Virus record (IMG/VR): IMGVR_UViG_3300041955_000531
Source of the DNA: a virus
DNA length: 64,000 nt
Strand: one strand, 5' to 3'
Made by a program: the position numbers and the translations under genes. This document shows positions 13,601 to 55,762 of the stretch, in pieces. The notes below the pieces were generated by a model, which saw only the letters and a list, made by a program, of their open reading frames with translations, did no database searches and had not been told where the DNA came from. The stretch's first letter is position 1; every line of letters starts with the position of its first letter.

Positions 13601-13649
13601 ATAAAAAAAGGGGCCTATTTCCATTCTTGGAGATAGGCCTTTGCTTTTT
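13601..13649. terminator. Bidirectional terminator (left copy)
   Basis: A-run, GGCCTATTTCC/GGAGATAGGCC hairpin, T-run, between convergent genes. Confidence 0.7.
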
Positions 13650-14115
13650 CTATGAGTTCGGGATGCTTTTCAACCATTGCGATTATCTGATTGTTGCATT
13701 TTGAATGAAGAATACTACGAGGTTTTCCAGTTTCATGATTGTGATCCCAATGACATTTTTCAAGATTGACTGGTAACTCTTTCCCGCATAATCCACATAT
13801 ACCTTTTTGCTTCTGGTATTGTTTTAGCTTGGCTTCGTGCGTAAAATACGTGTTTGAAGCAGATGTTATTCCTTCTGAACGGAATCGTTTCCCTTTGCGT
13901 TCTTTGCTTTGACGTTCCCCACAACATCTTGGGCAGCCTTTTGATGTCCCCGAACGTAAAGAATGTCCGAATACTTCTTTCGTTGTATGTTCACACACTA
14001 CTTTCCAAGTTTGTAGTCGAACTTTCTTTCCTTTGAAGATGTAAGTTCGCTTGCGTCCTTTTCCAATAACAAGCCAGTTCCCAAATACTTGTCCTTTCAA
14101 ATCAATCTGTCTCAT
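13615..14115 (-). CDS. Endonuclease VII-like HNH homing endonuclease
   Basis: Start MRQIDLKGQVFG after RBS GAGAGG; CGLC...WDHNHETGKPRSILHSKCN EndoVII motif. Confidence 0.85.
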   Translation of the reverse strand: MRQIDLKGQVFGNWLVIGKGRKRTYIFKGKKVRLQTWKVVCEHTTKEVFGHSLRSGTSKGCPRCCGERQSKERKGKRFRSEGITSASNTYFTHEAKLKQYQKQKGICGLCGKELPVNLEKCHWDHNHETGKPRSILHSKCNNQIIAMVEKHPELIEKAKAYLQEWK

Positions 14116-14130
14116 GATAGCCTCTCGAGA

Positions 14131-14143
14131 CTGATTAGTATAG
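14131..14143 (-). promoter_or_regulatory. Conserved phage promoter motif TATACTAATCAG
   Basis: Same motif recurs upstream of genes at 25170, 30896, 42422 and 55711. Confidence 0.7.
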
Positions 14144-14145
14144 AC

Positions 14146-14188
14146 ATAAAAATAGGGCCTCCATTGCTGGAGGCCCTTGTTTTGTTTT
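14146..14188. terminator. Bidirectional terminator (right copy)
   Basis: AGGGCCTCCA-ttgc-TGGAGGCCCT hairpin flanked by A and T runs. Confidence 0.75.
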
Positions 14189-14374
14189 ATAATCTTATCT
14201 TTGCGCCTTCCCACGAGACCAACAAGCTGAATGCTCTCTTGAAGATCTTCTATAGCTCCTGCCGTTGTGTCGGATGCTTGGGTTAGCTCGGCCGTCGTAT
14301 AGTATTACGTTTTTAGCCGCCGACTCGATGTGCCTCGTAAAATAGACACACCCGCGGCAAGCTATCATGTACTA

Positions 14375-15130
14375 TTATTTGAAAGCCACAATCTCAACTG
14401 CTTCGTTTTGATTGAAGTCGAATGCATTTAGGCAGATAACCTTGGTTCCTTCCCTTTCCTGAACGTCTTTCAAATGCATGTGTCCGTAGAAATGGTATGT
14501 AGGTTTGAACTTGTTGAGCAGCTGTGTAAATCCAGGACATCCTGGAGGTACTGTCTCATCGTGATCTAGTCCCAGGACTCCGCGCAAACCTTCTGGTACT
14601 GGTTTGCCTGCGAACTTCCATGGCACAACAGCCGTCGAACAATCATGTGTAACTAAGACATCTACCGGCCCATCGTACCTGAGAAGCTCAAGGACGTGAG
14701 GACGATAGATATGCAGTGCTTTCAAACTACCTGGAACCGAGTGATTCCTTGCGCACTTAACTATATCAGGATTCATCCAGCTCCGAGGACTGTAGTTACC
14801 CCAGACGGATGCAACCTTTATTCCAGCGATGTCAGTGACACCGCCATCTGGCAGGAGATGCAAGCGAGCGATTCTATCTGGCTCGGCTTGCCACTTCTTG
14901 ATAGACTCATGATTCTCATGGTTGCCCATGTTGACATAAGTCTCTATTGGAACTTGCTTGTCGACTTCCCAGAGATGTTTCCACTGGGTGCCGAACTGAT
15001 CAACTCCAAAATCACCTACGTGAACTACCGCGTCCAGCAAACTGCTCGTACGTAGTTGCCAGGCAGCCAACGCGACATACATCTCATAGAAATGGTAGTG
15101 ACAATCACCAACGAACGCTATGAGAGACAT
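14375..15130 (-). CDS. Calcineurin-like metallophosphoesterase
   Basis: GDCH, GDFG, GNHE, LVTHD and GHMH motifs. Confidence 0.9.
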   Translation of the reverse strand: MSLIAFVGDCHYHFYEMYVALAAWQLRTSSLLDAVVHVGDFGVDQFGTQWKHLWEVDKQVPIETYVNMGNHENHESIKKWQAEPDRIARLHLLPDGGVTDIAGIKVASVWGNYSPRSWMNPDIVKCARNHSVPGSLKALHIYRPHVLELLRYDGPVDVLVTHDCSTAVVPWKFAGKPVPEGLRGVLGLDHDETVPPGCPGFTQLLNKFKPTYHFYGHMHLKDVQEREGTKVICLNAFDFNQNEAVEIVAFK

Positions 15131-15149
15131 TACTTCCTTCCTTTACACT

Positions 15150-15500
15150 TGGTGGAGGCGCGGGGAGTTGAACCCCGGTCCAAAAAGCATCACAACTGCG
15201 GTACTACATGCGTAGTCCTATCACTTCTATCGTCGGCCACAGTAAGCAAGGACAACTCTCTGTAGCCCCGTTCCCTATTGTTTTAAGCACTCATAGTTAG
15301 AGCAGCACTATGAATCACCGAGCCTGCTAGTTTACGCCCTAGCCCAGTCAGCAGACATCGCCAGGTAGGACGTGGCTGCATTAAGCAGCCAACGGCAGTT
15401 CAAAAGCTTCTGCAGTTAAAGTTTTCCATTCTCTTACGGTGGTATGGGCACCGGCATGCACCTAGGTCGATCAGGCTTCTGTCGAAACCAAGTCGCCCCC
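15150..15500 (-). ncRNA. ssrA: tmRNA
   Basis: 5' GGGGGCGACTTGGTTTCGAC; 3' T arm plus CGCCTCCACCA with G3:U; tag ORF at 15381-15413 reads AEAFELPLAA*. Confidence 0.95.
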
Positions 15501-15705
15501 AAGATCAAAAGTTCGGGATAGCAGGCTTGAAGATCTTCTTCGATCTTGTTAGCCTGTAGAACAACCCGCTGATAGACATCTGGCCGTAGTCTACTCCGTA
15601 TGCATACTGCAGACTACAGAAGGATACCCGATGATACGGGTGCGCTCCTTGTTTGTACATCGATGTACATACTTCCAGAATGCCATCATAATCATTATAA
15701 CACAG

Positions 15706-16479
15706 TTACCCTGCTACGGAAAGCAAATCGGCCTTAAGTTGTGCCGCATCGAAGCCGGCAGGATCCCAAGCAGCGCCCAGCAAAGTGTGGGATTCATCAC
15801 AATACTTATCCCAGAAGGCCACGGTCATCTTCTGGAGCTGGCCCCAAGTGATGCAAGTAATGGTTGTAGCTCCGCCGGCATTAGTGTCCTTGACGTGGTA
15901 GGCTGGGCAATAAACAGCGTGACCGCCAACTATACCACCATCATGCTTGACAACGTCCCAGATCTTACCATTCTGATTCTGGATGATGGCCGAATAGGGA
16001 ACCTGCAAACCAATATAGACACCACCGAACTCTGCAACCGAGTGCATGATGTGTCCGAAGTTCTGAGGCTGTGGGCTAACATAAGCCTCCAGCACATGAC
16101 CGCCAAACGTCTGCTGATACCATCTCTTGAGGACTGTGCTCTCGTCGCCGCCGTTATCTGTATTGGGGTTACCAAGAACATAACCATCCCACTCTTCGTA
16201 CTTAGCCAGGATGAGGCTGTCTGGAGGAGTGATTTTACCCTTTGTCCAGACTTGAATAGCATGGCCTGGAGCGGCGATGGTGCAGTCTCCTATACCATCC
16301 GTGGGGACGTTCTCCCCGTAGTTGTTCGGACCGTTGAGCATCATGCCCCAGCTTGTAATGCCGTAAGTATTCTGGGCATAAGGCGGTGGGGTGTAGGAGG
16401 ACTTGATATAGTCCTTCATGCGTGGCTCGTAAGGGTCGAACTTAGCAGCTGTCTTACCGAGTTTGGGGATGAATGTCAT
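15706..16479 (-). CDS. Papain-like cysteine peptidase
   Basis: IGDCTIAA (Cys), GGHAV (His) and ITWG motifs. Confidence 0.75.
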   Translation of the reverse strand: MTFIPKLGKTAAKFDPYEPRMKDYIKSSYTPPPYAQNTYGITSWGMMLNGPNNYGENVPTDGIGDCTIAAPGHAIQVWTKGKITPPDSLILAKYEEWDGYVLGNPNTDNGGDESTVLKRWYQQTFGGHVLEAYVSPQPQNFGHIMHSVAEFGGVYIGLQVPYSAIIQNQNGKIWDVVKHDGGIVGGHAVYCPAYHVKDTNAGGATTITCITWGQLQKMTVAFWDKYCDESHTLLGAAWDPAGFDAAQLKADLLSVAG

Positions 16480-16490
16480 ATTGTCTCCTA

Positions 16491-17432
16491 TTAGACTGAT
16501 GGTCGATGGTGATGATGGTGATGGTGATGCTCGTGATGATGATGTCGATGATCATGGCATTCTGGATTCTTGCAATGCCATTCATCAACCAGCGCGCGCA
16601 TCTGAGGTGGCTTGTTTTGTGCGGCGTAATAGCGATGCGAGAGGGTGTTGTTCACACCTGATGTGGTTTGATTTTCCCACATACGCTCTTTCCAATGGAC
16701 CCAGTCTTGTATCCCTTGGGGTCCAATCTGTGGGTGCCACATGTGCAGAACCTGTCCAGGCATAGTCTTGTGCATTCCATAGAGTGTATCCATGGCACGC
16801 ATAGCGGCATGATCCTCACCGCCCCAGCCGCGGAAGCGAACATCCCAACCACCTACCAGCTCAAAAGCCTCACGAGGTACGATCTGAATCATTGCCCCAT
16901 AGTAATGACCGACTCCTGGATCAGTATCTCCCAGGATATACTCTGCATCTGGGGGAGAAGAGAATGTTGATGGTGATGCAGGATCAGATTGTAGCAAGTG
17001 CTTCGATGCTGTCTCTGTCAGACGATAGAACTTGCGATAAGGAACGAACCAGAGCTTATGCCCACGCTTACGGGCGTGGCGAATCTCCTCTACGCAATGT
17101 ATAACTACATCAGCAGTAACATATCCGTCTGCATCCACGATGACAAATACATCACCGCTAGCTTTGGATGCTGCAGCGTTCACTGCAACTGACTTGGAGA
17201 ATGGTTCTATATTAGGCTCGTCGCCAATAATGATCTCGGCGCCTGGAAGCTGAGTAGCCCAATATCTCTTAAGCCATGCAATGTTTCTTATGCGGGGACT
17301 TGATTGGTCGGTGCAACGGAATGGAATCAAGATACTTACTCCATGTCCCTTACGCAGCCGCCATGCAGCCAGGTATGCGAGGCCACTCGCAGCCAAGACT
17401 GACATAGCTGTGATGAGCATAACTGGGGTCAT
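16491..17432 (-). CDS. GT-A glycosyltransferase (GT2/GT7-like) with N-terminal TM and poly-His tail
   Basis: SILIPFR, DAD and GGWDVRFRGWGGED motifs. Confidence 0.85.
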   Translation of the reverse strand: MTPVMLITAMSVLAASGLAYLAAWRLRKGHGVSILIPFRCTDQSSPRIRNIAWLKRYWATQLPGAEIIIGDEPNIEPFSKSVAVNAAASKASGDVFVIVDADGYVTADVVIHCVEEIRHARKRGHKLWFVPYRKFYRLTETASKHLLQSDPASPSTFSSPPDAEYILGDTDPGVGHYYGAMIQIVPREAFELVGGWDVRFRGWGGEDHAAMRAMDTLYGMHKTMPGQVLHMWHPQIGPQGIQDWVHWKERMWENQTTSGVNNTLSHRYYAAQNKPPQMRALVDEWHCKNPECHDHRHHHHEHHHHHHHHRPSV

Positions 17433-18205
17433 TTCAACTCCCTTCCAAGCGCTCTGAAGGCATCATAGACGGCGAACTTGACATCTTCAACAAAGAACCT
17501 GTTAGGTGTTGTTACTTTCCCTGTAATGAATGGTGTCTTGATCGAGGCGCTGTAGTCCCTGAACTTGAAATCCCCACCATCTTTTGTCAGCTTTGGGCAC
17601 ATCTCCACTCTGCGTGGAATGGCGAAGCCATCTGCTACAATCATACCGTGTAGCGAAGAGGTTACAATCTTGCGGCATGCACCGATCTGGCGTATGACTT
17701 CCAGTGGGTCACCAGTCGGGTCAATAACTTTAGTGGTATAAGGCTTTTGAATCAGAGGAATGAATCGTGCTGCCAGCTCTTTGTCTTGCCAGTGCGGCAC
17801 GATGCCTAGGTCCCATTGCTTCTCTTGTAGTCCTACAAGTTCATCGGCTAGTATGCCTGGATCGCCGATAGCAAAGCTACCTGGTATTCCTTTTGCTGAT
17901 AATGGGCCACGAATGGCGAGTATCTTGGCTGTTACGCCAGACTTAAGTTGTTGCAGTTGCAGGCGGGAGTTTTCAATCAGCCTGCCAGATCCAAGAATAT
18001 AGCCGTCCCACAATGGCGGGATGTGTTCAAGTATCGAACCGACTGATGCTATTGAAGAATGAGAAATCGTATCCCACTCCACCTTGACTTCGGCGAAGTG
18101 TTCGAGCAATAAAGGCGCCATCGTATCGCCAAAGTTAGGAACTTGATTCCACCAATACGCTTTGACTGTATGATCTGCGAAGGGGTTTTGAAACCTGAAC
18201 TTCAT
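17429..18205 (-). CDS. Polysaccharide pyruvyl transferase (ExoV-like)
   Basis: PNFGD, GSIL, AIRGPLS, GDPG, IVPH and SSLHGMIVAD motifs. Confidence 0.85.
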   Translation of the reverse strand: MKFRFQNPFADHTVKAYWWNQVPNFGDTMAPLLLEHFAEVKVEWDTISHSSIASVGSILEHIPPLWDGYILGSGRLIENSRLQLQQLKSGVTAKILAIRGPLSAKGIPGSFAIGDPGILADELVGLQEKQWDLGIVPHWQDKELAARFIPLIQKPYTTKVIDPTGDPLEVIRQIGACRKIVTSSLHGMIVADGFAIPRRVEMCPKLTKDGGDFKFRDYSASIKTPFITGKVTTPNRFFVEDVKFAVYDAFRALGRELK

Positions 18206-18225
18206 TTAGGCCGTCTTCCAGAATG

Positions 18226-18749: not shown

Positions 18750-18823
18750 TGGTACCCGAGCAGAGACTTGAACTCTGTTCTCCAGCTTGAAGGGCTGGTG
18801 TCTTACCCATATACGACTTGGGC
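18750..18823 (-). tRNA. tRNA-Glu(TTC), C33 variant
   Basis: CCAGC-CCTTCAA-GCTGG; CCA. Confidence 0.85.
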
Positions 18824-18825
18824 AC

Positions 18826-18984
18826 TTAAGACTTTGTTGTACCTGGCAGGATGTTCTTGATCCATGCTAGGATACTATCAACGCGCGCGATGAAGTTAGG
18901 ATAGTGCTGCTGGAACTTCATGCCGCCAAAGAAAACAAGAAGGGTAAGAATCCCTTCCACTACAACCTTGAGAAGTGTGAACAT
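18826..18984 (-). CDS. Small membrane protein
   Basis: MFTLLKVVVEGILTLLVFF after RBS GGAG. Confidence 0.6.
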   Translation of the reverse strand: MFTLLKVVVEGILTLLVFFGGMKFQQHYPNFIARVDSILAWIKNILPGTTKS

Positions 18985-19070
18985 AACGTCTCCTAAACTC
19001 TGGCTACGCTTCGGCTCGAGGCGCCCACGTAGCCATGCGATGTGTCCTCGCTTAGACACATCTAAACTGT

Positions 19071-19145
19071 TGGTAGTCTCGGCGAGATTCGAACTCGCGT
19101 GACCAGCTTGAGAAGCTGGCATCCTCGCCACTAGATGACGTGACC
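19071..19145 (-). tRNA. tRNA-Glu(CTC)
   Basis: CCAGC-TTCTCAA-GCTGG; CCA. Confidence 0.9.
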
Positions 19146-19154
19146 ACCGAAAAC

Positions 19155-19190
19155 TGGCGGGACCAACGGGATTTGAACCCGTGATCCTGC
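19155..19190 (-). pseudogene. Orphan 3' half of a tRNA-Asp-like gene
   Basis: GCAGG-ATC-ACGGG TTCAAAT CCCGT-TGGTCCC-GCCA; no 5' half adjacent. Confidence 0.75.
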
Positions 19191-19197
19191 TAAATCT

Positions 19198-19272
19198 TGG
19201 CGGAACCAGCGGGAATCGAACCCGCATCCCACCCGTGACAGGGGTGCGTCATAGCCATTAGACCATGGCTCC
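19198..19272 (-). tRNA. tRNA-Asp(GTC)
   Basis: CACCC-CTGTCAC-GGGTG; CCA. Confidence 0.92.
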
Positions 19273-19593
19273 GTGATGTTTCATTCGGTGATGGTTAGCA
19301 CACAGGATGTCACACTTAGCTATTTCTTCCTGGATGCGTTTCAACGACCATCCCTTACGATTAAAGGAGCCGATCTCGAAAGACTTCTGCGCAGGATTTC
19401 TGTGATGGAAATCCAAGGCACTTGGGTGTTCTTTGAAACCACATACCTTGCAGCCTCTCTCGAGTTTATAGTCTTCGATCCACTTCTTGTTCCGAGCTAT
19501 CCGTAGCTTATCACACTTGCGGACGGCTTTCAAATGCTTCTTGCGATTCGCTGGATTACTATACCACTTCTTCCAAGCTTCTTGATTACTCAT
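19258..19593 (-). CDS. HNH endonuclease
   Basis: CKVCG...LDFHH...CDILCANHHR; 3' end overlaps tRNA-Asp. Confidence 0.9.
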   Translation of the reverse strand: MSNQEAWKKWYSNPANRKKHLKAVRKCDKLRIARNKKWIEDYKLERGCKVCGFKEHPSALDFHHRNPAQKSFEIGSFNRKGWSLKRIQEEIAKCDILCANHHRMKHHGAMV

Positions 19594-19612
19594 TGCTGCT
19601 CCTCGGATAGAG

Positions 19613-20005
19613 GAGTCAGCCTATCAACATCCCGCCATCGGCTAACCGCCGCGGTTTACCATCACGATTGCTTTGTCAAGGCAACCGATAAATACGAGGA
19701 TCTAACTGCAACACTCAAAGGCGACGCCAGCTCTCCCCCGTAATATGAGGGGGCACCAGCTTATGCAGTGGTGTCTGCAGCTCCTGCAGATCCAAGATGG
19801 GCGCGAGCAAGCCCGAAGCCTGACACTGTTCGGCTTTGGCCTCGGTAAGAGCGAGCAAAACAGTAAAAGGAACGCTCACTTACCCGCAAAGAACAACTGA
19901 CCTGAGTGATAAGTCTCACTCTATCCCGCGAGCGCTTTCCCAAACATCGGGCCGATGTAACGTCGCTTGCCGCTTTCCAAAGCGGCCAGGATAGAAGGAC
20001 TACTC
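19613..20005 (-). ncRNA. Candidate ~390-nt structured RNA
   Basis: Ends pair (GAGT..CTATC / GATAG..ACTC); several hairpins; no convincing ORF. Confidence 0.5.
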
Positions 20006-20171
20006 ACTTACTACAGGTCAAACTCTTCAATCTTTCAATCTCGTTTGCTGCTTCTTCCAGAAGATCGGCGATACGATCAGGCTTGCCTTCCTGTACGCTC
20101 TTGCGTGTAGTTATCTGCCTTCGTATCTCGGCGCGCTTGCGCAGCCTGCTAATCAGATCTTCCGTACTCAT
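20004..20171 (-). CDS. Small hypothetical protein (55 aa)
   Basis: MSTEDLISRLRKRAEIRRQITTRKSVQEGKPDRIADLLEEAANEIE...; below the ORF-track cutoff. Confidence 0.65.
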   Translation of the reverse strand: MSTEDLISRLRKRAEIRRQITTRKSVQEGKPDRIADLLEEAANEIERLKSLTCSK

Positions 20172-20176
20172 AAACT

Positions 20177-20250
20177 TGGTCCCTTGGGATGGGCTCGAAC
20201 CATCATCTCCTGATCTTCAGTCAGGGGTCCTACCATTGAACGACCGCGGG
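20177..20250 (-). tRNA. tRNA-Phe(GAA), atypical
   Basis: CCTGA-CTGAAGA-TCAGG; two acceptor-stem mismatches; G37. Confidence 0.7.
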
Positions 20251-20252
20251 TT

Positions 20253-20341
20253 TGGAGGAAGGCCAGAGAATCGAACTCTGTCTCGCCTTTCGACGAGTCT
20301 CGGTTTTCGGGACCGTTGCCGACCATTCAGCGCTGCCCTCC
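20253..20341 (-). tRNA. tRNA-Ser(CGA), C33 variant
   Basis: CGGT-CCCGAAA-ACCG; long variable arm; CCA. Confidence 0.8.
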
Positions 20342-20347
20342 TAAACT

Positions 20348-20437
20348 TGGCGGAGGGTGTAGGATTTGAACCTACGCTGGCTTTCACCAGGCCTCAGGTT
20401 AGCAACCTGGCGCCTTTCCAAACTCAGCCAACCCTCC
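20348..20437 (-). tRNA. tRNA-Ser(GCT)
   Basis: Loop TT GCT AA; long variable arm; CCA. Confidence 0.92.
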
Positions 20438-20506
20438 GAATACACGGGTAGATCGTGATGAGTTTCTACTACTCGAGTTGGCTGTTGCGTTCATCATACT
20501 AATCCT

Positions 20507-20584
20507 TGGCAGGCCAGGATGGATTTGAACCACCGTCATCGGTTTTGGAGACCGAGGTCCTGGGCCAGACTAAACGACCGGCCT
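20507..20584 (-). tRNA. tRNA-Trp(CCA)
   Basis: TCGGT-CTCCAAA-ACCGA; CCA. Confidence 0.92.
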
Positions 20585-20588
20585 GCGA

Positions 20589-20801
20589 TTAAACTATACC
20601 ACCGAATGGCGGCTGGCCAGCATCCACCAGCTTCTGTTCGAGAACCCTGATAGCGCATACGAGAGTCTTGATCAGATTCTCGTTATCGGTATCCTTGAAG
20701 GGTATGTCCAACAGTACTTCGCCACCAACTACACCGACAAAAGCTCTCTTCTGCTTTGTGTCGGGGTCTACTATTTCAGTTACGTATGATTCGATGATCA
20801 T
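20589..20801 (-). CDS. Hypothetical protein
   Basis: 70-aa ORF with RBS AAGGA. Confidence 0.6.
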   Translation of the reverse strand: MIIESYVTEIVDPDTKQKRAFVGVVGGEVLLDIPFKDTDNENLIKTLVCAIRVLEQKLVDAGQPPFGGIV

Positions 20802-20811
20802 TGTCAGTCCT

Positions 20812-20853
20812 TGGTGGAGCAGATGGGAATCGAACCCTCTCTCAAAACCTTAT
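20812..20853 (-). pseudogene. 3' half of a split tRNA-Ala
   Basis: GGG TTCGATT CCC AT-CTGCTCC-ACCA; acceptor strand complements GGGGCAG at 21493-21499. Confidence 0.85.
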
Positions 20854-20886
20854 AGCTCCTATACTATTCAAATATAGAGGAGCTTT

Positions 20887-20962
20887 TGGTGGAGCATGCG
20901 AGATTTGAACTCGCCGCCTCCGCATTGCAAGTGCGGCGCTCTCCCAAATGAGCTAATGCCCC
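20887..20962 (-). tRNA. tRNA-Ala(TGC), intact replacement copy
   Basis: G3:U70; CCGCA-CTTGCAA-TGCGG; CCA. Confidence 0.95.
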
Positions 20963-20963
20963 A

Positions 20964-21455
20964 ATGAAAACTATAACACGAACCTGCTTAAATCCAAAAT
21001 GCAAGAAACAGTTTGAAGCTGAACTCCGAGAAGTACATCGCGGTAATGGTAAATATTGCTGTTTACAATGCTGCCTTAATCACATAAGACCAGTAGGTCG
21101 CACTTTACATACACTAACTTGTTCCTACTGCTTCAAAGAGTTTAAAGATGATCGACCCCTTGTGCCAGGTTTGCCTGATATTGTAGTGCCAGATATACTG
21201 CCTCGTCGATACTGTAGTCGGCAATGTAAGGATCTGAATCATAGAAATGATTGTCATGATGCTCGAACACTGGCGTTTCGCAACTTTCCACATAAATGCA
21301 ATCGCTGTAACTGGGATACAGAACCAGCGGTTCTGGAAGTTCATCACAAAGACCGCAACAGAGAAAACAATGAGCTATCTAATCTTGAACTACTTTGCCC
21401 AACTGATCATTGTTTAGATCACTTTCTTGCAAAAGATGGCAAGTGGCGCAAGTAA
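20964..21455 (+). CDS. HNH endonuclease with N-terminal zinc-binding repeats
   Basis: CxxC/YCSxxC repeats; CNRC...LEVHHKDRNRENNELSNLELLCPTDH. Confidence 0.9.
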   Translation: MKTITRTCLNPKCKKQFEAELREVHRGNGKYCCLQCCLNHIRPVGRTLHTLTCSYCFKEFKDDRPLVPGLPDIVVPDILPRRYCSRQCKDLNHRNDCHDARTLAFRNFPHKCNRCNWDTEPAVLEVHHKDRNRENNELSNLELLCPTDHCLDHFLAKDGKWRK

Positions 21456-21499
21456 CTTATGCTTGCAAAGCATCTGCGCTCCCGTTGCGCCACTGCCCC
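21456..21499 (-). pseudogene. 5' half of a split tRNA-Ala(TGC)
   Basis: GGGGCAG TG GCGC AACGGGA GCGC A GATGC TTTGCAA GCATA AG, then breaks off. Confidence 0.85.
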
Positions 21500-21510
21500 A
21501 CGGAAAATCT

Positions 21511-21621
21511 AATCCTAGATTGACAGCCGGACCAGCGGCGATAAGGTATGTCCGGATTGTGCGCGGCTTTTCTGGTTAGTATCCTGCGTCTAACCATCCT
21601 ATTGACCGCCAATCTAGGGTT
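21511..21621 (-). ncRNA. Candidate ~110-nt structured RNA
   Basis: 15-bp closing stem with G:U pairs on the - strand enclosing internal hairpins. Confidence 0.5.
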
Positions 21622-21652
21622 GATGACCAACTCAACTTGAGTTTGTCAAACT

Positions 21653-21730
21653 TGGTCGGGGAGGGAGGATTCGAACCTCCGTTCTCCTGAATCCGAATCA
21701 GGCGCCTTGGACCAGCTAGACCACTCCCCG
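21653..21730 (-). tRNA. tRNA-Pro(CGG)
   Basis: CCTGA-TTCGGAT-TCAGG; CCA. Confidence 0.92.
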
Positions 21731-21780
21731 ATACTAAACCTTTACGGTCGTTCGGGTCGTGGCTCTAGTCCGCGCGTCAT

Positions 21781-22134
21781 TTAGAAACTCATTCCTAGTA
21801 TCTTGCGATTACGGATCACCATAGCGGTTTCTCCGATCGCTACTGCTCCCCAAAAGATGTATGCGGCCGGCATGCTGTAGTAAGCAAAAGCCCCGCCTGC
21901 AAAAGTAACAAAGGCGCCTTCAAGGAAACAAGTCAAAGCTTGTCCTATCTTGCCGAAGAGCCAGCGATTCCAAGGACTCATTTCTTTATCGCCCTTGGAA
22001 AGGCCAATACCAGTATACCAGCAATCACCGAGCATGGCAACTATAGTATACACGTACACCAGGAACAGCCCTAGAGAATCCCAGAAGCCTGGCTGATTAG
22101 GCCACAAACGCGGATCATCGGGTAGTTGAAACAT
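21781..22134 (-). CDS. Membrane protein (DUF5658-like)
   Basis: TM segments with D.wyT..gL.KG.kE.sP pattern. Confidence 0.6.
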   Translation of the reverse strand: MFQLPDDPRLWPNQPGFWDSLGLFLVYVYTIVAMLGDCWYTGIGLSKGDKEMSPWNRWLFGKIGQALTCFLEGAFVTFAGGAFAYYSMPAAYIFWGAVAIGETAMVIRNRKILGMSF

Positions 22135-22155
22135 TGTTTCTCCTTCTATAAACTC

Positions 22156-22245
22156 TGGTGGAGACGATAGGATTTGAACCTATTCTAGTCCCATTGGGAC
22201 CTGGGGTTACGGCCCAGTGCAGATCCCCGTCTCTGCTGCGCCTCC
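22156..22245 (-). tRNA. tRNA-Tyr(GTA), C33 variant
   Basis: CTGGG-CCGTAAC-CCCAG; long variable arm; CCA. Confidence 0.85.
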
Positions 22246-22313
22246 ATGGAAGCGCACCTCTCCGTGCGCTCATTAAGCGCTACGATAACCGACTCCGCTG
22301 CTCTGTCCACCTT

Positions 22314-22631
22314 TCATGGTACATTCCTATAGTTGTTCACTGTGCAGTAGACGTGATAAGCTGCCTGGCACAAATACCCAACTCCAAATCCGTATCCTGC
22401 AGGTGTCCAGTAATGCGCTGCAATACCTGCTACAAGAACCTCGAGTGCTACGGCAATGCTGCTACGAACCCACATCCTCTTCACTGAAGGATCATCGGTG
22501 CCGTAGATCCAGATCATGATTCGATCTGCTTCAGTGTAACCTTTCCTCAGAAAGCGAGCTGTGCTGACTCCATCCGCTGTTGCAGCTGGGATCAGAATAC
22601 CCACTGCGATCTTGAGAAGCGTTGGTATCAT
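22314..22631 (-). CDS. Membrane protein (DUF5658-like), probable paralog of 21781
   Basis: D..ST..FL.KG..E pattern plus TM segments. Confidence 0.6.
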   Translation of the reverse strand: MIPTLLKIAVGILIPAATADGVSTARFLRKGYTEADRIMIWIYGTDDPSVKRMWVRSSIAVALEVLVAGIAAHYWTPAGYGFGVGYLCQAAYHVYCTVNNYRNVP

Positions 22632-22858
22632 TGCGCTGTCTTTCTCCTGTATTGACGAACCTTTTCGAAAACCCAGTTGACCGTTGAGTACGCGTGCTCA
22701 TCTTCTAACTTGTGATCCTCGATTAGGTGCACAGTCATTCGGTTGCACATGCCGCGAATAACACAGTGTTTGCAGAGTTCACAATCACGAAGCATCGGGA
22801 TGTCCGGATCGAACTGGGGTTTCTCTTTGAACCAACACAACAAAAATCCGAATGTCAT
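22628..22858 (-). CDS. Hypothetical zinc-finger-like protein
   Basis: CELC...H...H pattern. Confidence 0.5.
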   Translation of the reverse strand: MTFGFLLCWFKEKPQFDPDIPMLRDCELCKHCVIRGMCNRMTVHLIEDHKLEDEHAYSTVNWVFEKVRQYRRKTAQ

Positions 22859-22877
22859 CGTGCTCTCGCTATAAACT

Positions 22878-23234: not shown

Positions 23235-23639
23235 TCATGATTCCATTGTATCACACTGCCAGGCGTTCAGGCCATGGAACAGTGACTTACCTTTCTTCCT
23301 CGAACAAAAGACTGCAACCGCGGTTAAGAGGGCTTCTTCTGTCTGATAGTACCCGGGGTTGGTATCGCGAAACTCTTCCCACGGTAGACGCGCGTGTGAG
23401 ATTTGATGACGGACTTTCTCCAGCTCGTTGCTGTCAACGACTTTGAGGATGATGGTTGTGTGCTCTTCATCAGGGTCCAGTTTAAGTCTCAACTTCAGTT
23501 TCGATACTACATGACATGCCTGGGCTATACAACGGCCGCAAGACATCGGAATAATCTCCCTCAGGAACATCGTAGGTGATATTACGAATGAAGGGAGAAT
23601 AACGTAAATCCTTTTTTCAACTACGGTGCCTGGGGCCAA
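23235..23639 (-). CDS. Peptidyl-tRNA hydrolase (Pth2-like)
   Basis: MSCGRCIAQACH, TIILKV and RDTNP...TAVA match the Pth2 pattern. Confidence 0.75.
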   Translation of the reverse strand: MAPGTVVEKRIYVILPSFVISPTMFLREIIPMSCGRCIAQACHVVSKLKLRLKLDPDEEHTTIILKVVDSNELEKVRHQISHARLPWEEFRDTNPGYYQTEEALLTAVAVFCSRKKGKSLFHGLNAWQCDTMES

Positions 23640-23997
23640 GGACTCTACCTCTCAAAGCCATTCCAATCTTGGCTTTGTGTTCCTCAGACATAGGACCGCG
23701 TTTTGTTCCTGTCTGAGAACCACGGATCTTCGCTGCAATCGCTGGACTACCAGCTGTACGAATAGCATGACAGTTAGCGCAAACTAAATCGCACTTATCA
23801 GCCTCTCGTTTCAGTTCTTCAAGAGATCGATGTAATCCCGAGCTAATAGAAAAGAGTTTAGTACTCGGGTCACGATGATCAAAATGAAAGCAACAGTCAG
23901 GAAAGATATGATTGCAATCAAGACACTTGCCACCTTTGTAGAGAACAAGCTGATGTTTCTTCTCTTGGCGTTTACTCTTTAATCCTAACCATGTCAT
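23617..23997 (-). CDS. HNH endonuclease with NUMOD3-like tail
   Basis: CLDC...FDHRDP...CDLVCANCH; SEEHKAKIG. Confidence 0.9.
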   Translation of the reverse strand: MTWLGLKSKRQEKKHQLVLYKGGKCLDCNHIFPDCCFHFDHRDPSTKLFSISSGLHRSLEELKREADKCDLVCANCHAIRTAGSPAIAAKIRGSQTGTKRGPMSEEHKAKIGMALRGRVLGPRHRS

Positions 23998-24028
23998 TGC
24001 GCTTCTCTACTTTGGGCGTCTCTTTCAT
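23972..24028 (-). pseudogene. Probable orphan N-terminal stub of the pth-like gene
   Basis: MKETPKVEKR versus the Pth N-terminus MAPGTVVEKRIYV. Confidence 0.5.
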
Positions 24029-25745: not shown

Positions 25746-25752
25746 ACGGTAT

Positions 25753-25899
25753 TTAGAAGTTCGGATTGTTGGCTATCTGGTAGGTGATATAAGCATAATA
25801 GCTTGCTACCACCGCTAGGGTAATCAGAGCAAGTGCAAATGCCCGCCATCCGATCTCTGCTATGTGCTTGACTTCTTTGACTTCTCTTTCTACGCTCAT
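25753..25899 (-). CDS. Small membrane protein
   Basis: MSVEREVKEV... with one TM helix; RBS GAGG. Confidence 0.55.
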   Translation of the reverse strand: MSVEREVKEVKHIAEIGWRAFALALITLAVVASYYAYITYQIANNPNF

Positions 25900-25916
25900 G
25901 TATGCCTCTTTAAACC

Positions 25917-28018: not shown

Positions 28019-28450
28019 CTATTTCTCACGTGTGTAATGTTGACATTCTTTACACAAGTGATGTAATCCATTGAACTCACTTCTGTTCTTATTGAACTGT
28101 GAAATAGGAAGCATCTTCTTATGCCTACTACACCAGTTCATTCCTTCTGGCCTTTTGATAAAAGGTATGCCTTTTGGTGAATGAGGTCGATCAGGTTTAT
28201 TACAAGCAACATGTGAAAATGCTATGTTATTCAAATCCCAAAAGAGATCTGAACTAATATGTAACCACGGCTTTTTGTGCTCAATAGAAAAGTCTTCGAT
28301 CTTTTCTATTCGTGATCCACACTTGTAACACAGATCCTCATTCAATCTTTGTGCCATTCGAAAGAGCAAACTCTTTCTAAGTTTGGCCATTGCTGTACCA
28401 AACGGCATTCCCAACTGTGATGCCTTCACAGTGTTTGAAGTATTTGGCAT
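28019..28450 (-). CDS. HNH endonuclease
   Basis: CYKCG...SIEHKKPW...NNIAFSHVACN plus C-terminal zinc ribbon. Confidence 0.85.
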   Translation of the reverse strand: MPNTSNTVKASQLGMPFGTAMAKLRKSLLFRMAQRLNEDLCYKCGSRIEKIEDFSIEHKKPWLHISSDLFWDLNNIAFSHVACNKPDRPHSPKGIPFIKRPEGMNWCSRHKKMLPISQFNKNRSEFNGLHHLCKECQHYTREK

Positions 28451-28471
28451 GGATACCCTCCTGCCTTTTAC

Positions 28472-28557
28472 TTGCGGAGGCTGGATTTGAACCAGCGGTG
28501 CCCTTTCGGTTCCAGTTTATGAGACTGGCGACATCGGCCTGACTAGTCGACCCCGCA
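28472..28557 (-). tRNA. tRNA with CAT anticodon (Met-like), long variable arm, no CCA
   Basis: CCAGT-CTCATAA-ACTGG; fMet-like acceptor TGCGGGG/CTCCGCA. Confidence 0.75.
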
Positions 28558-50938: not shown

Positions 50939-51151
50939 CTACTCCCTGTTAGGACACCACGAATAACACATACAATCACCACCACACTGGAGACAGCGTT
51001 CACTGTGATCTCGAAAGCCTCCGCCTAGATGAATCCTCAGGCGGACGCCATTGCGCAGCTTCTTCTGACATCCTTTGCAGATGATCCACTCAACTTTCTT
51101 ATTGCCAATCCACTGGCTGGCTTGCTTATAAAAGACGCAGAGCCGCTTCAT
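50939..51151 (-). CDS. Cys-rich hypothetical protein
   Basis: CKGC...CLQC. Confidence 0.5.
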   Translation of the reverse strand: MKRLCVFYKQASQWIGNKKVEWIICKGCQKKLRNGVRLRIHLGGGFRDHSERCLQCGGDCMCYSWCPNRE

Positions 51152-51152
51152 G

Positions 51153-51799: not shown

Positions 51800-51820
51800 G
51801 AGTCTCTCCTAAAAGACTAA

Positions 51821-52410
51821 CCCCAGTTATCAGGTCTGATAACTGGGGCTATGAACTACCACTATAGACTAAGGGTAACATCGGCGAAGCGACGCAGCCC
51901 GTGGTGAGCATTCGATTTTTCCAGACATTTGCTCCAAATGTCTGGAAAGCGCTCCCCACAATCGAAGCGGAACAGGGCGAGAATGGAACTACTAGATAAC
52001 AGCGTAGCCGATTCCCAGCCAGACTACCCCTGTAGGCATACTGAGGAATGGCGTAACGGGCGGTAGCGTTGGGTCAATCGATTGAAAAGCGATTGACCCA
52101 GAGCGGACGCCGTGGAGCGAGTCCGAAGTACTAGGTCATTCTTCTGTAGGGCGCCTGCCAAGATCTCATCCTGAGCCACCAATGCCAAGATAAGATATTA
52201 GTCATGCATCCCCAGAATCTTTCCCTGATTGCATACGGTTTATCTGTTAGCTCGCGAATGACTTCTTTCATAAGGCCTCGAGTCGCTGCCAAGAAAGGAG
52301 GATCCGAGTAGGACCGGGCGGGCAGAAGCAGTGAAGCCGCCCATCGGCGAGCTGCGGTGCCCGCGAAGGGAGTATGAGGATACGAGTTTCGCAGGCTGCA
52401 GGGAGAGGAC
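51821..52410. ncRNA. Candidate ~590-nt structured non-coding region
   Basis: No ORF of 60 aa or more in any frame; three perfect 11-14 bp hairpins and more stems. Confidence 0.55.
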
Positions 52411-52412
52411 TC

Positions 52413-52700
52413 TTACTTATCGTAGTGACGCTTGGCAATCCCATTGCGATCCAGAGTCTGGATGGCTGATATAGCCAGGCCTGCCACCTTCAACATATCC
52501 GTACGGAATCGGATAGGATTGAAGAGACGAGTCGTGCGATCCATTTCCACTGCCCGGCCGGCGTAGATCATGAGATAAGATGCCCAGTCATTGGCTGTGT
52601 TCTTATCATCGAACTCAGTACCCCAAAGGTTCTCGGCATACTCTTTCTCTGCCTTGATCTCAGCCACGATACTTTCGAACTGCTTTTCATCAAATGGCAT
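52413..52700 (-). CDS. MazG-like all-alpha protein
   Basis: E..Y....WG.EFDD.N...DW..Y...MLKVAGLAISAI. Confidence 0.55.
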   Translation of the reverse strand: MPFDEKQFESIVAEIKAEKEYAENLWGTEFDDKNTANDWASYLMIYAGRAVEMDRTTRLFNPIRFRTDMLKVAGLAISAIQTLDRNGIAKRHYDK

Positions 52701-53953
52701 TATACTTTCCTCTCAGCCTCTTCCGTTTCTTCTTCTTCCTGGGCTGCCAACATGTCGTTGACCATGGGCGCCAGGTCTGGGTACTCCAGAGCAATACAAG
52801 GGAACTTATAAGGGCAGTATCGGCACTGCCAGTCCCCAATAATAGGTCCGACCTTAGAGTCCTTCCACTTACGGCTCTTGCCGTTCTTCCAGGACTTCCA
52901 TTCGGCGAACTTAACCTTGCCAATGAAGCCCTTTTCAGCGAAGCTTTCGATAGCTATGTCGGTATAACGGTAGCGGTAGTCTGCTGGGGGTAGGTATGAC
53001 GTCGGTAGGCGTCTCATCTCCTCCCCAACCCTCTCCCAGAATGCCTTTTCCTGCTGTTTCCAGGCGATTACAGCCTCTTCCGGCGCTTCCGCGGGCAAGG
53101 AGGCTGGACGGACTGTCCCCTGCTCCTGGAGCCTCCGGATCGCTTCAGCCTGTGATCGGTTAAAGTAACCCTGGATCTGTTCGAAGCGTTCATAAATCGA
53201 CTCCACCGTGAAAATGCGCCAAACATCTCCGTTGACTTGAGGATAGTGGAGGCCATCATAATCCTCGTAGATTTCGATATCGAACTCCGCTGTGAGGCAG
53301 GTGTCTCGTGTCTCGTAGCAAATCTTTCCATACACGGGCGAATCATCTTTGATCATCCCTAGGTTGACGTCGGTGACACGGACTCGGTTGCGCGGATTAG
53401 TTGGTTTATCCGCTTGCGCAGTTGCAATGATTTGCTTGAGCAGGGCACCATTACGTATCTCGTTGATATAGATGAGTGTCTGGAGAACATGCTCGAGCTT
53501 TGGCTTCCCCTTCTGATAAGGGCCACCAATGATTTCCTTCTGGGCCATATAGCCGTAGATTGATTTGTTTTCACATATCACCGGTTGTCCTGACTGAGGG
53601 TCTATGACAATAAGGTCCAACTCAAAGGCCAGATCAATGTTCGGGACGTAGTGCCTGACCCCACTGGCAATATGCAGACCGGCCTCCATAGCCTGAAGCG
53701 TGGTATCTTCCTCAACGGCTTTACCAGTTCGAACTCGACGCGCACCGACGGGGTCCATCTGACTTGTAGTCTTCTCCCCTGTGAGCCTGTAATATACCTT
53801 TCGTCCACAGCCCCCGGCAAAACCCGCAACTGTGGGTTCGAGGAGGACAGCCGAACTCTCTGAAGGCCAGAGTCTGGCAGACTTGCTTGTCCAGTCATCA
53901 CGCTTCTCCATTCCAACTAGTGCTTTGTCGAGGTGCTCAAACAACTTAAACAT
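52700..53953 (-). CDS. Cas4-like PD-(D/E)XK exonuclease with Fe-S cysteines
   Basis: PSES..CGRKVYY, ELD, ENKS, QTLIY and CRYCPYKFPC. Confidence 0.8.
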   Translation of the reverse strand: MFKLFEHLDKALVGMEKRDDWTSKSARLWPSESSAVLLEPTVAGFAGGCGRKVYYRLTGEKTTSQMDPVGARRVRTGKAVEEDTTLQAMEAGLHIASGVRHYVPNIDLAFELDLIVIDPQSGQPVICENKSIYGYMAQKEIIGGPYQKGKPKLEHVLQTLIYINEIRNGALLKQIIATAQADKPTNPRNRVRVTDVNLGMIKDDSPVYGKICYETRDTCLTAEFDIEIYEDYDGLHYPQVNGDVWRIFTVESIYERFEQIQGYFNRSQAEAIRRLQEQGTVRPASLPAEAPEEAVIAWKQQEKAFWERVGEEMRRLPTSYLPPADYRYRYTDIAIESFAEKGFIGKVKFAEWKSWKNGKSRKWKDSKVGPIIGDWQCRYCPYKFPCIALEYPDLAPMVNDMLAAQEEEETEEAERKV

Positions 53954-54089
53954 CGGTAGGCCTCCACTTCTTGTCGTGCTTTAGCCTCTGCATCTTCTGG
54001 ATAGCCTCGATGCGAGTAAGCTTTTCTTGCTTCATTAGTTCGGCGATTTTTGCTTCTTCTTGCTCTGACCAACCTTTGGTTGTGTCCAT
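53946..54089 (-). CDS. Small helical protein
   Basis: MDTTKGWSEQEE...; RBS GAGG. Confidence 0.55.
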   Translation of the reverse strand: MDTTKGWSEQEEAKIAELMKQEKLTRIEAIQKMQRLKHDKKWRPTDV

Positions 54090-54107
54090 ATTACCTCTTG
54101 AAAGGGT

Positions 54108-54211
54108 GTCTCCCGGGGAGGGATTCGAACCCTCCCCTTCGGTATTCAGGACCGACGTGCTCCGTCGACGGCCTACTATTTTATCGAACTCCAATACACC
54201 ACCCAAGAGAC
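54108..54211 (-). ncRNA. tRNA-like RNA with 35-nt D loop and 10-bp acceptor stem
   Basis: GTCTCTTGGG/CCCGGGAGAC; TCGGT-CCTGAAT-ACCGA; GAGGG-TTCGAAT-CCCTC. Confidence 0.7.
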
Positions 54212-54360
54212 GAGATGTTAGGGCAAGGTGAGAGGATCAAAAGCGGTCCAATGATTAGTATTGTCACCACTAAATCGGGCGCCGACGCTTAATGGGCAAT
54301 CGGACTTCATATTAGATATGGACAGTGCAGTGTCCAGTCTCACCTACTGCTGCCCTAATG

Positions 54361-55152
54361 TTATTCAACCTGTGGGACGGCGTCGCTCACAGCAACAACG
54401 TGAGACTTCTCGCCTTCAATATACTCCACAGGCTTTTGTAACTTGTCTTGGACAGCTTCCCAGACCATCTGGAAGACCTGTCCCGGAGTCTGTTCGGGAT
54501 AGACAGTGATCACGATCGTGCGATCCTGACCTACTAGTCTTTCCAGATACTCCTGCTGGATTCGAATCTGGTCTTGGGTGTGAGCCCAGGCCTTTCCAGC
54601 TTGTTTGTTGTTGTCGCCGCGCCGTTGACGCGCGCGGTCGAGAAAAGCATCCACATCTGATGCTACGAACAGCACGGTGATGTCTGGCAGTGGTCCGTAG
54701 AACTCCTGGAAAGCATCCAGTATAACACCTGGCGTCTTCTTTATGGGTGCGTAGGCCCACTCGGAGTCGGAGTAACGGTCGGACAATACCACCAAGCCTT
54801 TTTCAAGGGCCGGCTCAACCACCTTTGCCACATGCTGAATGTGATCGGCGAGGAAGAGACAGTCAGCCACTCCACGGGCCATGTTGTGTGTCGTGACCGT
54901 GTGGAACAAGATTTGGCGTATCGCAGAGCCCAAGTCAGTTGGGTCGACTGGGCTGCCAGGTTCCTTTGTAACCACAACCCCATAACCTTCCTCCCTCATG
55001 CGGGCAGCAAGCATCTCCAACTGCGTGGACTTACCCGTTCCATCTACTCCCTCGAAGGTTATGAGACGTCCCTTCCGTACTGGCTTATGAAGCTCTGGGT
55101 AAAGAGGATCTCCAAAAATCCGCTTATAGTTTTCTTTCGTCTCTTCCGACAT
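54361..55152 (-). CDS. tmk: Thymidylate kinase
   Basis: ITFEGVDGTGKSTQ, KEPG, LSDRY and PDIT motifs. Confidence 0.95.
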   Translation of the reverse strand: MSEETKENYKRIFGDPLYPELHKPVRKGRLITFEGVDGTGKSTQLEMLAARMREEGYGVVVTKEPGSPVDPTDLGSAIRQILFHTVTTHNMARGVADCLFLADHIQHVAKVVEPALEKGLVVLSDRYSDSEWAYAPIKKTPGVILDAFQEFYGPLPDITVLFVASDVDAFLDRARQRRGDNNKQAGKAWAHTQDQIRIQQEYLERLVGQDRTIVITVYPEQTPGQVFQMVWEAVQDKLQKPVEYIEGEKSHVVAVSDAVPQVE

Positions 55153-55672
55153 TTATGCTCCTCATCCATTCTGCCACTTTCATTACTTCTTCAGGGGTGG
55201 CATCGTTCTTGATTACATTAGCCCGCTGGCTAATAACTTGAATATTTCCTGGGACATAACCCTTATTAGGAACAATCCTATCAAGAGTTGGACTCGACGC
55301 AATAGAACCTGGCTTCCCAACCCCTTTCTTCAATACTATTCCAAGAATAGGACAGACCAAAGGTATTTTGGGGACGTCGGCGGGCTTAATAGAAAAAGGT
55401 AAGTGCTTCTTTATTGCCCTCTTCCTCGCCCCATTCCATAAAGCATACTCTGGGGTGTTGAAAAGACCATGCTTCAAACCACTATGCCCTTTCTTATAAC
55501 ACCCGCAACTTTTGCTTCTTCCGTTCTCAAGGTTGGAACCAATAACGTTTACTACCTTGCCACATTTACATTCACATTGCCAACGAGTAGCACCCCATCT
55601 GGCGTTCTCAACCTGCTTGATAACCTTGAGCCAAGTGAATGTCTTTCCAACAAGATCCAGTATCTTTCCCAT
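55124..55672 (-). CDS. HNH homing endonuclease
   Basis: DLVGKTF..L.V...W.C.C.CG...SCGC; SPTLDRIVPNKGYVPGNIQVISQRANVIK. Confidence 0.9.
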   Translation of the reverse strand: MGKILDLVGKTFTWLKVIKQVENARWGATRWQCECKCGKVVNVIGSNLENGRSKSCGCYKKGHSGLKHGLFNTPEYALWNGARKRAIKKHLPFSIKPADVPKIPLVCPILGIVLKKGVGKPGSIASSPTLDRIVPNKGYVPGNIQVISQRANVIKNDATPEEVMKVAEWMRSINVGRDERKL

Positions 55673-55710
55673 ACTTCACCTCAGTTGAGTAGATTTACAA
55701 GCCTACTCTT

Positions 55711-55723
55711 CTGGTTAGTATAG
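55711..55723 (-). promoter_or_regulatory. Conserved phage promoter motif TATACTAACCAG
   Basis: One-mismatch copy upstream of the HNH gene. Confidence 0.65.
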
Positions 55724-55762
55724 TAAATCAACGCCTTCGAACGTGATGAAATGTCCTTTCAT
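55715..55762 (-). pseudogene. Orphan N-terminal stub of the original tmk
   Basis: RBS GGAG then MKGHFITFEGVD-LLY*. Confidence 0.9.

Follow-up and report, generated by a model that had tools for sequence, protein, structure and literature searches.

The window analyzed here, a 64,000-nucleotide stretch of viral DNA (IMG/VR record IMGVR_UViG_3300041955_000531), carries six nuclease genes, several of which lie within or beside tmk, pth2, tRNA genes or a terminator, together with a dead remnant and a diverged working copy of the same element. A nuclease domain of a homing-endonuclease family was found in all six open reading frames (ORFs) with Pfam and PHROG, and all six ORFs are intact. Five of them had been picked out as HNH/EndoVII nucleases in a sequence-only reading, and each of the five was matched in Pfam or PHROG: 13615-14214 is an Endonuclease_7 (2.4e-12), 20964-21455 an HNH_3 (4.7e-6), and 19258-19593, 23617-23997 and 55124-55672 match PHROG HNH/endonuclease families at 1e-23 to 1e-30. 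That reading missed a sixth HNH gene at 28019-28450, and it described the five enzymes as unrelated, which is incorrect for those at tRNA-Asp (19258) and pth (23617), which share PHROGs and are 40% identical in BLASTP (1e-9). The inserts in which the genes sit are 375-652 nt long and the nuclease gene is their sole gene content.

The source of the window is a large environmental phage of about 200 kb. Its G+C content is about 50%, its genes lie mostly on the minus strand, and the public runs that contain its sequence are wetland, peat, and pond metagenomes. Among GenBank phages, megablast with 12 kb of the window gave no match and tblastn with the primase-helicase gave distant matches only. 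The genomes used for comparison, each without a nuclease at given sites, were G001, a 215-kb IMG/VR phage judged complete and collinear over the whole window at 82-94% nucleotide identity; L080, L083, and X4 (a contig from an independent pond metagenome), which are 97-99.9% identical to the window; and L078, whose dUTPase protein is identical to that of the window and which shares 95.0% nucleotide identity across the 1,964 nt upstream of the tmk stub.

Nuclease Genes Within tmk and pth

At the tmk site, where all features are on the minus strand, the order is dut, a stub ORF reading MKGHFITFEGVD-LLY*, the octamer CTATACTA (55716-55723) with a hairpin, the nuclease gene, and tmk. The native tmk 5' stub MKGHFITFEGVD (55762->55727) comes directly after dut and stops at the P-loop codons. 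It is followed by an HNH/EndoVII-like nuclease gene of 182 aa (55124-55672; PHROG 3322, 1.4e-30) and then by the working tmk (54361-55152; Pfam Thymidylate_kin, 6e-30), which encodes 263 aa including a 26-aa N-terminal extension. The Shine-Dalgarno (SD) sequence and start codon of the working gene lie inside the nuclease gene, and the tmk sequence resumes at KGRLITFEGVDGTGKST. When the stub peptide was compared with that of the working tmk, none of 300 shuffles scored as well.

Comparison with relatives identifies the two copies. The stub is identical at 35/36 nt to the empty allele of L078, in which tmk directly follows dut, and G001 lacks 55076-55727. Identity between the window and L078 is 95.0% upstream of the stub and 72.5% over the next 443 nt of tmk, and the window tmk resembles the G001 type whereas the stub resembles the L078/L004/L005 type. 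The replacement had been thought to comprise the tmk 5' end only; with at least 440 nt of foreign sequence, it amounts to at least most of the gene.

In two unrelated contigs, L064 and L065, a homologue of the tmk nuclease (50-56% identity) sits immediately before tmk. In L065 a stub of its own, MNKGKLITFEGV, lies between an RNR gene and the nuclease gene, the break falls within one codon of that in the window, and the working tmk begins MQKVVGKFLTIEGAEG. The same stub test was negative on L064 and on L067-L069, so that L064 has nuclease and tmk without a stub. A fourth homologue, in L066, has no tmk beside it and its leader contains CTATACTA and a hairpin as in the window. Among IMG/VR homologues of the tmk and pth nucleases, none had tmk, pth, or dut nearby.

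At the pth site, also on the minus strand, the order is tRNA-Asn, stub, HNH gene, and pth2. The native pth2 5' stub (MKETPKVEKR..; 23998-24028) is identical at 31/31 nt to the pth start of G001 and L080, and its ORF continues out of frame to a stop at 23972. The HNH gene (23617-23997; 126 aa, PHROG 3106/2255) has its start codon exactly at the left junction; a single NUMOD3-like motif was detected in the protein (E=0.027), while homologues carry PF07460, in up to three copies. The working pth2 (23235-23639; Pfam PTH2) begins at a TTG inside the HNH 3' end. Within the genome the similarity of stub and working pth is weak and confined to VEKR (15/300 shuffles). The nuclease-free relatives show the stub to be the native start and the VEKRI codons of the working copy to be all synonymously different.

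The tract boundaries at this site are sharp. Upstream of the insert the window and L080 are 99.4% identical over 1.6 kb; downstream of it, mismatches per 30 nt run 16, 8, 9, 5, and then 0-1. The foreign tract is thus about 120 nt long (23640->~23521), with 38 mismatches, about 68% identity, and a sharp end. G001 lacks 23623-23997 and the insert is absent from L080, L083, and X4. Homologues of the pth HNH occur in other contexts without stubs.

A Native tRNA-Ala Gene Split by an Insert

A 618-nt insert (20838-21455) splits the native tRNA-Ala precisely and carries both an HNH gene and an intact tRNA-Ala. On the minus strand, a 44-nt native 5' stub covering tRNA positions 1-45 (21499->21456; Rfam 27.4 bits, below the gathering score) adjoins an HNH_3 gene of 163 aa on the plus strand (20964-21455), antisense to the tRNA array. 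Beyond this lie the working tRNA-Ala(UGC), on the minus strand at 20887-20962 (ARAGORN; Rfam 67.1 bits), which has G3:U70 and is 67% identical to the native gene, and a 49-nt spacer (20838-20886) with a weak hairpin and a plus-strand CTATACTA at 20859-20866, upstream of the HNH gene. A 26-nt native 3' stub then follows on the minus strand (20837->20812), comprising T-arm, acceptor strand, and CCA and matching the native end.

The native tRNA-Ala of L080 is, letter for letter, the 44-nt 5' stub, GTTGT, and the 26-nt 3' stub; the 5' stub is also identical to the first 44 nt of the gene in G001, and X4 joins 20837 to 21456 through exactly five letters, ACAAC. The insert is absent from G001, L080, L083, and X4. 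Homologues of the Ala HNH at 37% identity (L071/L072) abut an intact tRNA-Ala(UGC) as well.

A separate 146-nt segment (21507-21652) lies between tRNA-Pro(CGG) and the tRNA-Ala 5' stub. Beginning with TTGACA and including a hairpin, this segment occurs in all nuclease-bearing contigs and is missing from G001, L080, L083, and X4.

The window comes from a metagenome, and related samples contain alleles of both types, so merged strain variants could in principle have produced such structures as an assembly chimera. However, assemblies of different samples from ENA, JGI, and Logan share the same junctions, at least seven independent contigs from several samples and assemblers have an identical tmk allele, and the Ala cassette of the window recurs with 100% identity in L081 and L082. 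We therefore give an assembly artifact next to no credence.

The tRNA-Asp, Terminator, and tRNA-Met Sites

At tRNA-Asp, on the minus strand, an HNH gene of 111 aa (19258-19593; PHROG 2255/3106, 1e-28 to 3e-24) shares its last 15 nt with the 5' end of the working tRNA-Asp(GTC) (19198-19272; ARAGORN; Rfam tRNA 62.2 bits). A 27-nt tRNA 3' stub (19155-19181), made up of T-arm, acceptor strand, G73, and CCA, sits 16 nt past the working gene and is identical to its end at 23/27 positions; a 3' stub alone is present here. From its sequence, it is plausible that this stub is the old tRNA-Asp. An exact search of IMG/VR and JGI metagenome contigs with the 27 nt found no parent gene. The site is unreadable in two relatives, through a 100-N scaffold gap in L080 and 120 unseen letters standing for 18751-19689 in X4; an apparent deletion of the Asp region in L080 was discarded because it coincides with that gap. 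Homologues of the Asp HNH sit in tRNA arrays. At the corresponding Asp/Glu site, G001 has an HNH of its own (148 aa, PHROG 23251) right after tRNA-Asp and tRNA-Glu(CTC), at 6609-7244 of L016, the label of the G001 stretch that covers the terminator and Asp/Glu sites, and its alleles of the two tRNAs do not align with those of the window. The Asp/Glu site is a hot spot, with different nucleases and different tRNA alleles in the window phage and G001.

The terminator insert (13616-14171, minus strand) consists of CTATACTA (14136-14143), an EndoVII-type gene, and a new terminator arm, and is absent from G001. The gene runs from an ATG at 14114 to a stop at 13615 and is called as 166 aa by gene callers, also in L088/L091. 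An upstream terminator hairpin (14154-14177, minus strand; -21.4 kcal/mol, z -4.9) and a downstream one (13609-13642, minus strand; -17.9 kcal/mol), the latter overlapping the nuclease stop codon, are each followed by similar T-run and promoter-like sequences, forming a duplicated terminator/promoter module. The T-run of the downstream hairpin and the sequence after it are continuous with G001, which at this site has a single hairpin (L016 9952-9985) and 18 nt in place of the insert. An exact look-up of the phosphoesterase beside the EndoVII gene returned nuclease-bearing contigs only, and no near-isogenic empty terminator allele.

Immediately behind tRNA-Met comes the sixth HNH gene (28019-28450, insert 28022-28473, minus strand; 143 aa, Pfam HNH 3.2e-5), which G001 and X4 lack. 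The T-stem of the adjoining tRNA-Met is GCTGG/CCAGC vs. GTGGG/CCCAC in G001, with compensatory changes, and the encoded CCA is lost. As the gene has no stub, it looks like classic intronless homing.

The octamer CTATACTA occurs six times in the window vs. 1.1 expected, a count reached in 0/100 shuffles, and may represent a phage promoter element. Three of the six copies fall within nuclease inserts, where each precedes the nuclease gene in the sense direction, which agrees with the proposal that three cassettes bring their own promoter motif. The other copies are outside nuclease inserts, at 1592 (+), 25175 (-), and 30901 (-).

Reciprocal Cassettes in a Close Relative

The pattern is also found in reverse, as L080 carries two cassettes where the window has the empty allele. 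The first (L080 5265-5786) comprises a 46-nt tRNA-Trp 5' stub, a TATAAT-like box, a 144-aa HNH gene (PHROG 2255), and a tRNA-Trp overlapping the HNH 3' end; its empty counterpart in the window is the uninterrupted tRNA-Trp at 20507-20584. The tRNA-Trp of L080 is chimeric, with a native 3' part and a foreign 5' part, and has mismatches in the acceptor stem. The second cassette (L080 3873-4313) holds a frameshifted HNH gene (73 + 88 aa) just upstream of a type II tRNA, with a small hairpin on either side, one copy being native and the other diverged. The type II tRNA of the window (22159-22245, minus strand) was missed by ARAGORN and scores 39.4 bits in Rfam, with an anticodon loop that by eye reads GUA (Tyr).

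Probable Homing With a Linked Target Allele

The insertions, native stubs, foreign working copies, empty alleles, and co-conversion tracts are directly seen. A search for empty alleles showed that joining the stub to the distal gene body rebuilds the uninterrupted tmk, pth, tRNA-Ala, and terminator of nuclease-free relatives, and these relatives carry one copy of the element, never a stub together with a replacement. The pairing of each of the five nucleases with a stub and a diverged working copy, as proposed from the sequence alone, was accordingly borne out at tmk, pth, tRNA-Ala, and the terminator, and in part at tRNA-Asp, which has a 3' stub only and lacks an empty allele. The proposed geometry was also correct: the nuclease 3' end overlaps the replacement in four cases (by 15, 23, and 29 nt, and by the terminator arm), and the Ala replacement abuts the nuclease 5' end, lying 1 nt from the HNH start. 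Insertion inside genes applies to tmk, pth, and tRNA-Ala but not to the terminator, where the case is intergenic, and the description of the targets as essential genes went too far, as tRNAs, tmk, and pth2 are auxiliary genes of phages and not demonstrably essential.

No group I or group II intron family was found in Rfam at E<=1 over 19100-22400, a stretch that covers the tRNA-Asp and tRNA-Ala sites. The tmk and pth stub ORFs terminate in stop codons, and the nuclease ORFs lie in another frame or on the opposite strand. The lack of an intron family together with stop-ended stub ORFs supports the view that these are intron-less and intein-less units that bring a replacement with them.

The nuclease genes behave as free-standing homing genes do, with presence or absence among collinear relatives at tmk, pth, Ala, Met, and the terminator and with co-conversion beside the nuclease gene at pth (the ~120-nt tract) and tmk (72.5% vs. 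95%). Stubs are 97-100% identical to native alleles and carried copies 60-72%, while the flanks differ by 0.6-5%; the working copies bear the signature of co-conversion from a diverged donor. It might be supposed instead that the nuclease caused a local tandem duplication, after which one copy diverged in place, since SegB drives tandem amplification of a tRNA-segB unit via microhomology (PMC13096335). The asymmetry between stub and working copy, set against such similar flanks, excludes divergence in situ, and we consider this origin extremely improbable. Two related candidates were also set aside. SegB-type amplification does not fit a single nuclease copy whose flanking copies are 60-79% identical rather than near-identical repeat units, and integrase-type duplication of tRNA 3' ends does not fit inserts that hold a nuclease gene only and repeats that are diverged and include 5' halves.

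We consider it likely, from comparative sequence data, that the window contains free-standing homing endonuclease genes, each linked to a diverged and presumably immune allele of its own target. When nuclease-bearing and nuclease-free phages infect the same cell, the enzyme would cut the empty allele at a conserved functional sequence, the presumed breaks being at the tmk P-loop codons, pth2 codon 11, tRNA position 45-50 (the variable-loop/T-stem border), and the terminator. The cut points to be expected in empty alleles, to within a few nt of the caret, are ..GGCGTTGAT^GGGACAGG in tmk, ..AAGCGCA^TATATG in pth, and ..GCATAAG^GTTGT^GGGTTCG in tRNA-Ala. The break would then be repaired from the nuclease-bearing genome. 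On the side far from the nuclease, a homologous crossover inside the target would let donor sequence replace resident sequence, over ~120 nt at pth and at least 440 nt at tmk, and also at tRNA-Trp. Where the donor copy was too diverged for a crossover (tRNA-Ala at 67%, Asp, and the terminator), the whole donor copy would be inserted with a second abrupt junction, leaving a 3' stub at all three. On the nuclease side there would originally have been no homology, so that resident sequence up to the break would survive as the stub and the junction would always be abrupt. The finished allele of stub, nuclease, and replacement could then home into the empty alleles of close relatives by two-sided homologous repair. 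Host function would be kept without intron or intein, as the working copy travels with the nuclease gene and often overlaps its 3' end.

Nuclease content differs between genomes with nearly identical flanks, which points to recent movement. This bears on the suggestion that the nucleases are inactive relics, or have been domesticated (for example, for the exclusion of competitors) and have ceased to home. Such an account would suit the short length of two HNH proteins, the frameshift in one HNH of L080, and an activity that is deduced from sequence. Set against it are the presence/absence differences between genomes 99.4-99.9% identical in their flanks and the intactness of all six window ORFs, and we regard it as unlikely.

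A stronger claim than a homing gene with a linked target allele is that these are evolved home-and-rescue elements, in which the nuclease gene and a recoded gene start or tRNA form a co-adapted mobile unit selected to invade genes of unrelated phages, which would make them a third solution after introns and inteins. The replacement begins within the nuclease ORF, with overlaps of 15-29 nt, and at tmk its SD and start codon are embedded there; three inserts have their own CTATACTA motif; and the tmk nuclease lineage occurs with tmk in three unrelated contexts, two of which have independent stubs at the same codon. The overlaps and the embedded tmk start show long-standing linkage of nuclease and target allele, but they do not prove selection for rescue. 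One-sided repair gives the same structures without such selection, and what serves as a replacement may be the target allele that was linked to the nuclease gene in the donor and was co-converted with it in ordinary intronless homing, not a rescue built for the purpose. Stubs are missing where homologues of the pth-type HNH occur elsewhere, in L064, with nuclease and tmk, and at the sixth HNH; moreover, the "rescued" tRNA-Trp of L080 is a mismatched chimera. Selection for rescue is thus possible and, in our judgment, rather doubtful.

Several points also weigh against homing with a linked, immune target allele. From the alleles we infer nuclease activity, where exactly the cuts fall, the replacement's immunity, and how the break is repaired. 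No donor genome, with nuclease and target and without a stub, was found for the phage group of the window, and at tRNA-Asp neither an empty allele among the relatives nor a parent for the stub was found. The Ala insert requires two non-homologous junctions, and the 146-nt insert adjoining it is unexplained. Two of the HNH proteins, one of 111 aa that lacks a DNA-binding tail and one of 126 aa that has only one NUMOD3 motif, could be decaying. Lastly, the mismatched chimeric tRNA-Trp in L080 means that insertion is not always harmless.

Relation to Known Mobile Nuclease Systems

Free-standing endonucleases of T-even phages, such as SegB in the tRNA cluster, SegF, and MobE, spread by intronless homing (PMC2330249, PMC2988022, PMC13096335). 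The genes described here resemble the T-even Seg/Mob genes in being HNH/EndoVII-type genes beside conserved phage genes, variable among relatives and with co-converted flanks, in having conserved functional targets that include the tRNA T-arm, and in having their own phage promoters. SegB of T4/T6 cuts tRNA genes at a T-arm motif (PMC13096335), and the tRNA breaks here fall at the variable-loop/T-stem border, adjoining the T-arm. The nuclease gene in T4, however, is intergenic and leaves no piece of the target behind, whereas here the insert lies inside tRNA-Ala, tmk, and pth, with a native stub and a foreign copy.

Closer in layout are fungal mitochondria, in which mobile endonuclease ORFs carry foreign gene ends and the native remnant is kept, as in atp6 of Allomyces macrogynus and in atp6, atp9, cox2, and nad3 of Glomus (PMC3630166; also PMC6279837). 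In both systems the native end persists as an unused remnant that closely matches relatives, beside a diverged carried end, which in the fungi has been read as endonuclease-driven horizontal transfer. There, however, it is the 3' (C-terminal) end that is carried, upstream of a LAGLIDADG or GIY-YIG ORF; here it is the 5' end or a whole tRNA, downstream of or overlapping an HNH/EndoVII ORF, in a phage host and with tRNAs and a terminator among the targets. The window elements work like the Allomyces-atp6-type family without being members of it. Aeh1 mobE in nrdA is likewise a free-standing nuclease gene inside a phage gene without intron or intein, but there both halves are functional and the polypeptides reassemble, while here one part is dead and the carried copy replaces it (PMC2988022).

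For the origin of the stubs, intron homing in T4 offers a precedent, in that homology on one side suffices and the other junction can be illegitimate at the break, according to the account of Parker et al. (1999) given in PMC2988022. That was demonstrated experimentally for an intron with engineered substrates, whereas here one-sided repair is proposed from natural alleles.

Our literature searches for a phage nuclease with a partial duplication of its target found none, the matches being from fungal mitochondria, and target stubs are not described in papers on the ICP1 and Skunavirus nucleases. The layout of a stub plus a carried copy is thus known from fungal mitochondria, and no phage report was found.

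The units had also been likened to a cleave-and-rescue (ClvR) gene drive. A homing drive that carries a recoded rescue (home-and-rescue) is the closer synthetic parallel, since ClvR has its rescue at a separate locus and does not home. These synthetic systems also pair a nuclease with a cleavage-resistant recoded copy; the comparison is an analogy only, as resistance of the natural copies is presumed.

Other Features of the Window

The RNA genes of the window comprise 25 tRNA genes, one further aberrant tRNA call, and a tmRNA (15150-15500, minus strand; tag AEAFELPLAA), which G001 has at the same place with the tag AEFEELPLAA. Behind the CCA end of the tRNA, many spacers open with the recurring motif GTTTA. 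Inserts with small ORFs lie in two of the spacers, at 22632-22870 and 25749-25916; both are absent from G001 and the first also from L080 and X4. Two sub-threshold Rfam matches on the minus strand of the tRNA array, CyVA-1 RNA at 19805-19885 (38.1 bits, gathering score 41.4) and a tRNA-Sec-like match at 20257-20341 (33.9 bits, gathering score 47), could represent additional tRNA-like genes. Three genes form a 2.5-kb module (15690-18225) that is absent from G001 and present in near-isogenic relatives; one of them matches a PHROG galactosyl transferase family, and precomputed Pfam annotations of the module on L080 and L089 are Glycos_transf_2 (weak) and PS_pyruv_trans.

Implications for Phage Genome Evolution

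Whether phages hold a general class of splicing-free homing elements, with a nuclease and an overlapping recoded gene start or tRNA as a co-evolved unit, is a tentative suggestion that we would not favor at present. If true, homing endonucleases would have a third means of persisting inside genes, next to introns and inteins, and home-and-rescue drives would have an equivalent in nature. Such a class would be best illustrated by the tmk lineage, in which two unrelated phages have stubs of independent origin at one P-loop codon.

In genome annotation, stubs of tRNAs, short ORFs in leaders, and chimeric genes beside an HNH gene should be read as scars of such events and not as genes, and trees built from the tmk, pth, or tRNA sequences of such phages combine donor with resident sequence. 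The phage group of the window offers a clean natural system, with at least six nuclease cassettes in one clade, near-isogenic empty alleles, stubs that mark probable cut sites to within a few bases, and co-conversion tracts that can be measured. It makes testable how free-standing homing genes enter genomes and genes, how alleles of tRNA and nucleotide-metabolism genes are swapped between phages, and whether the carried copy confers immunity.

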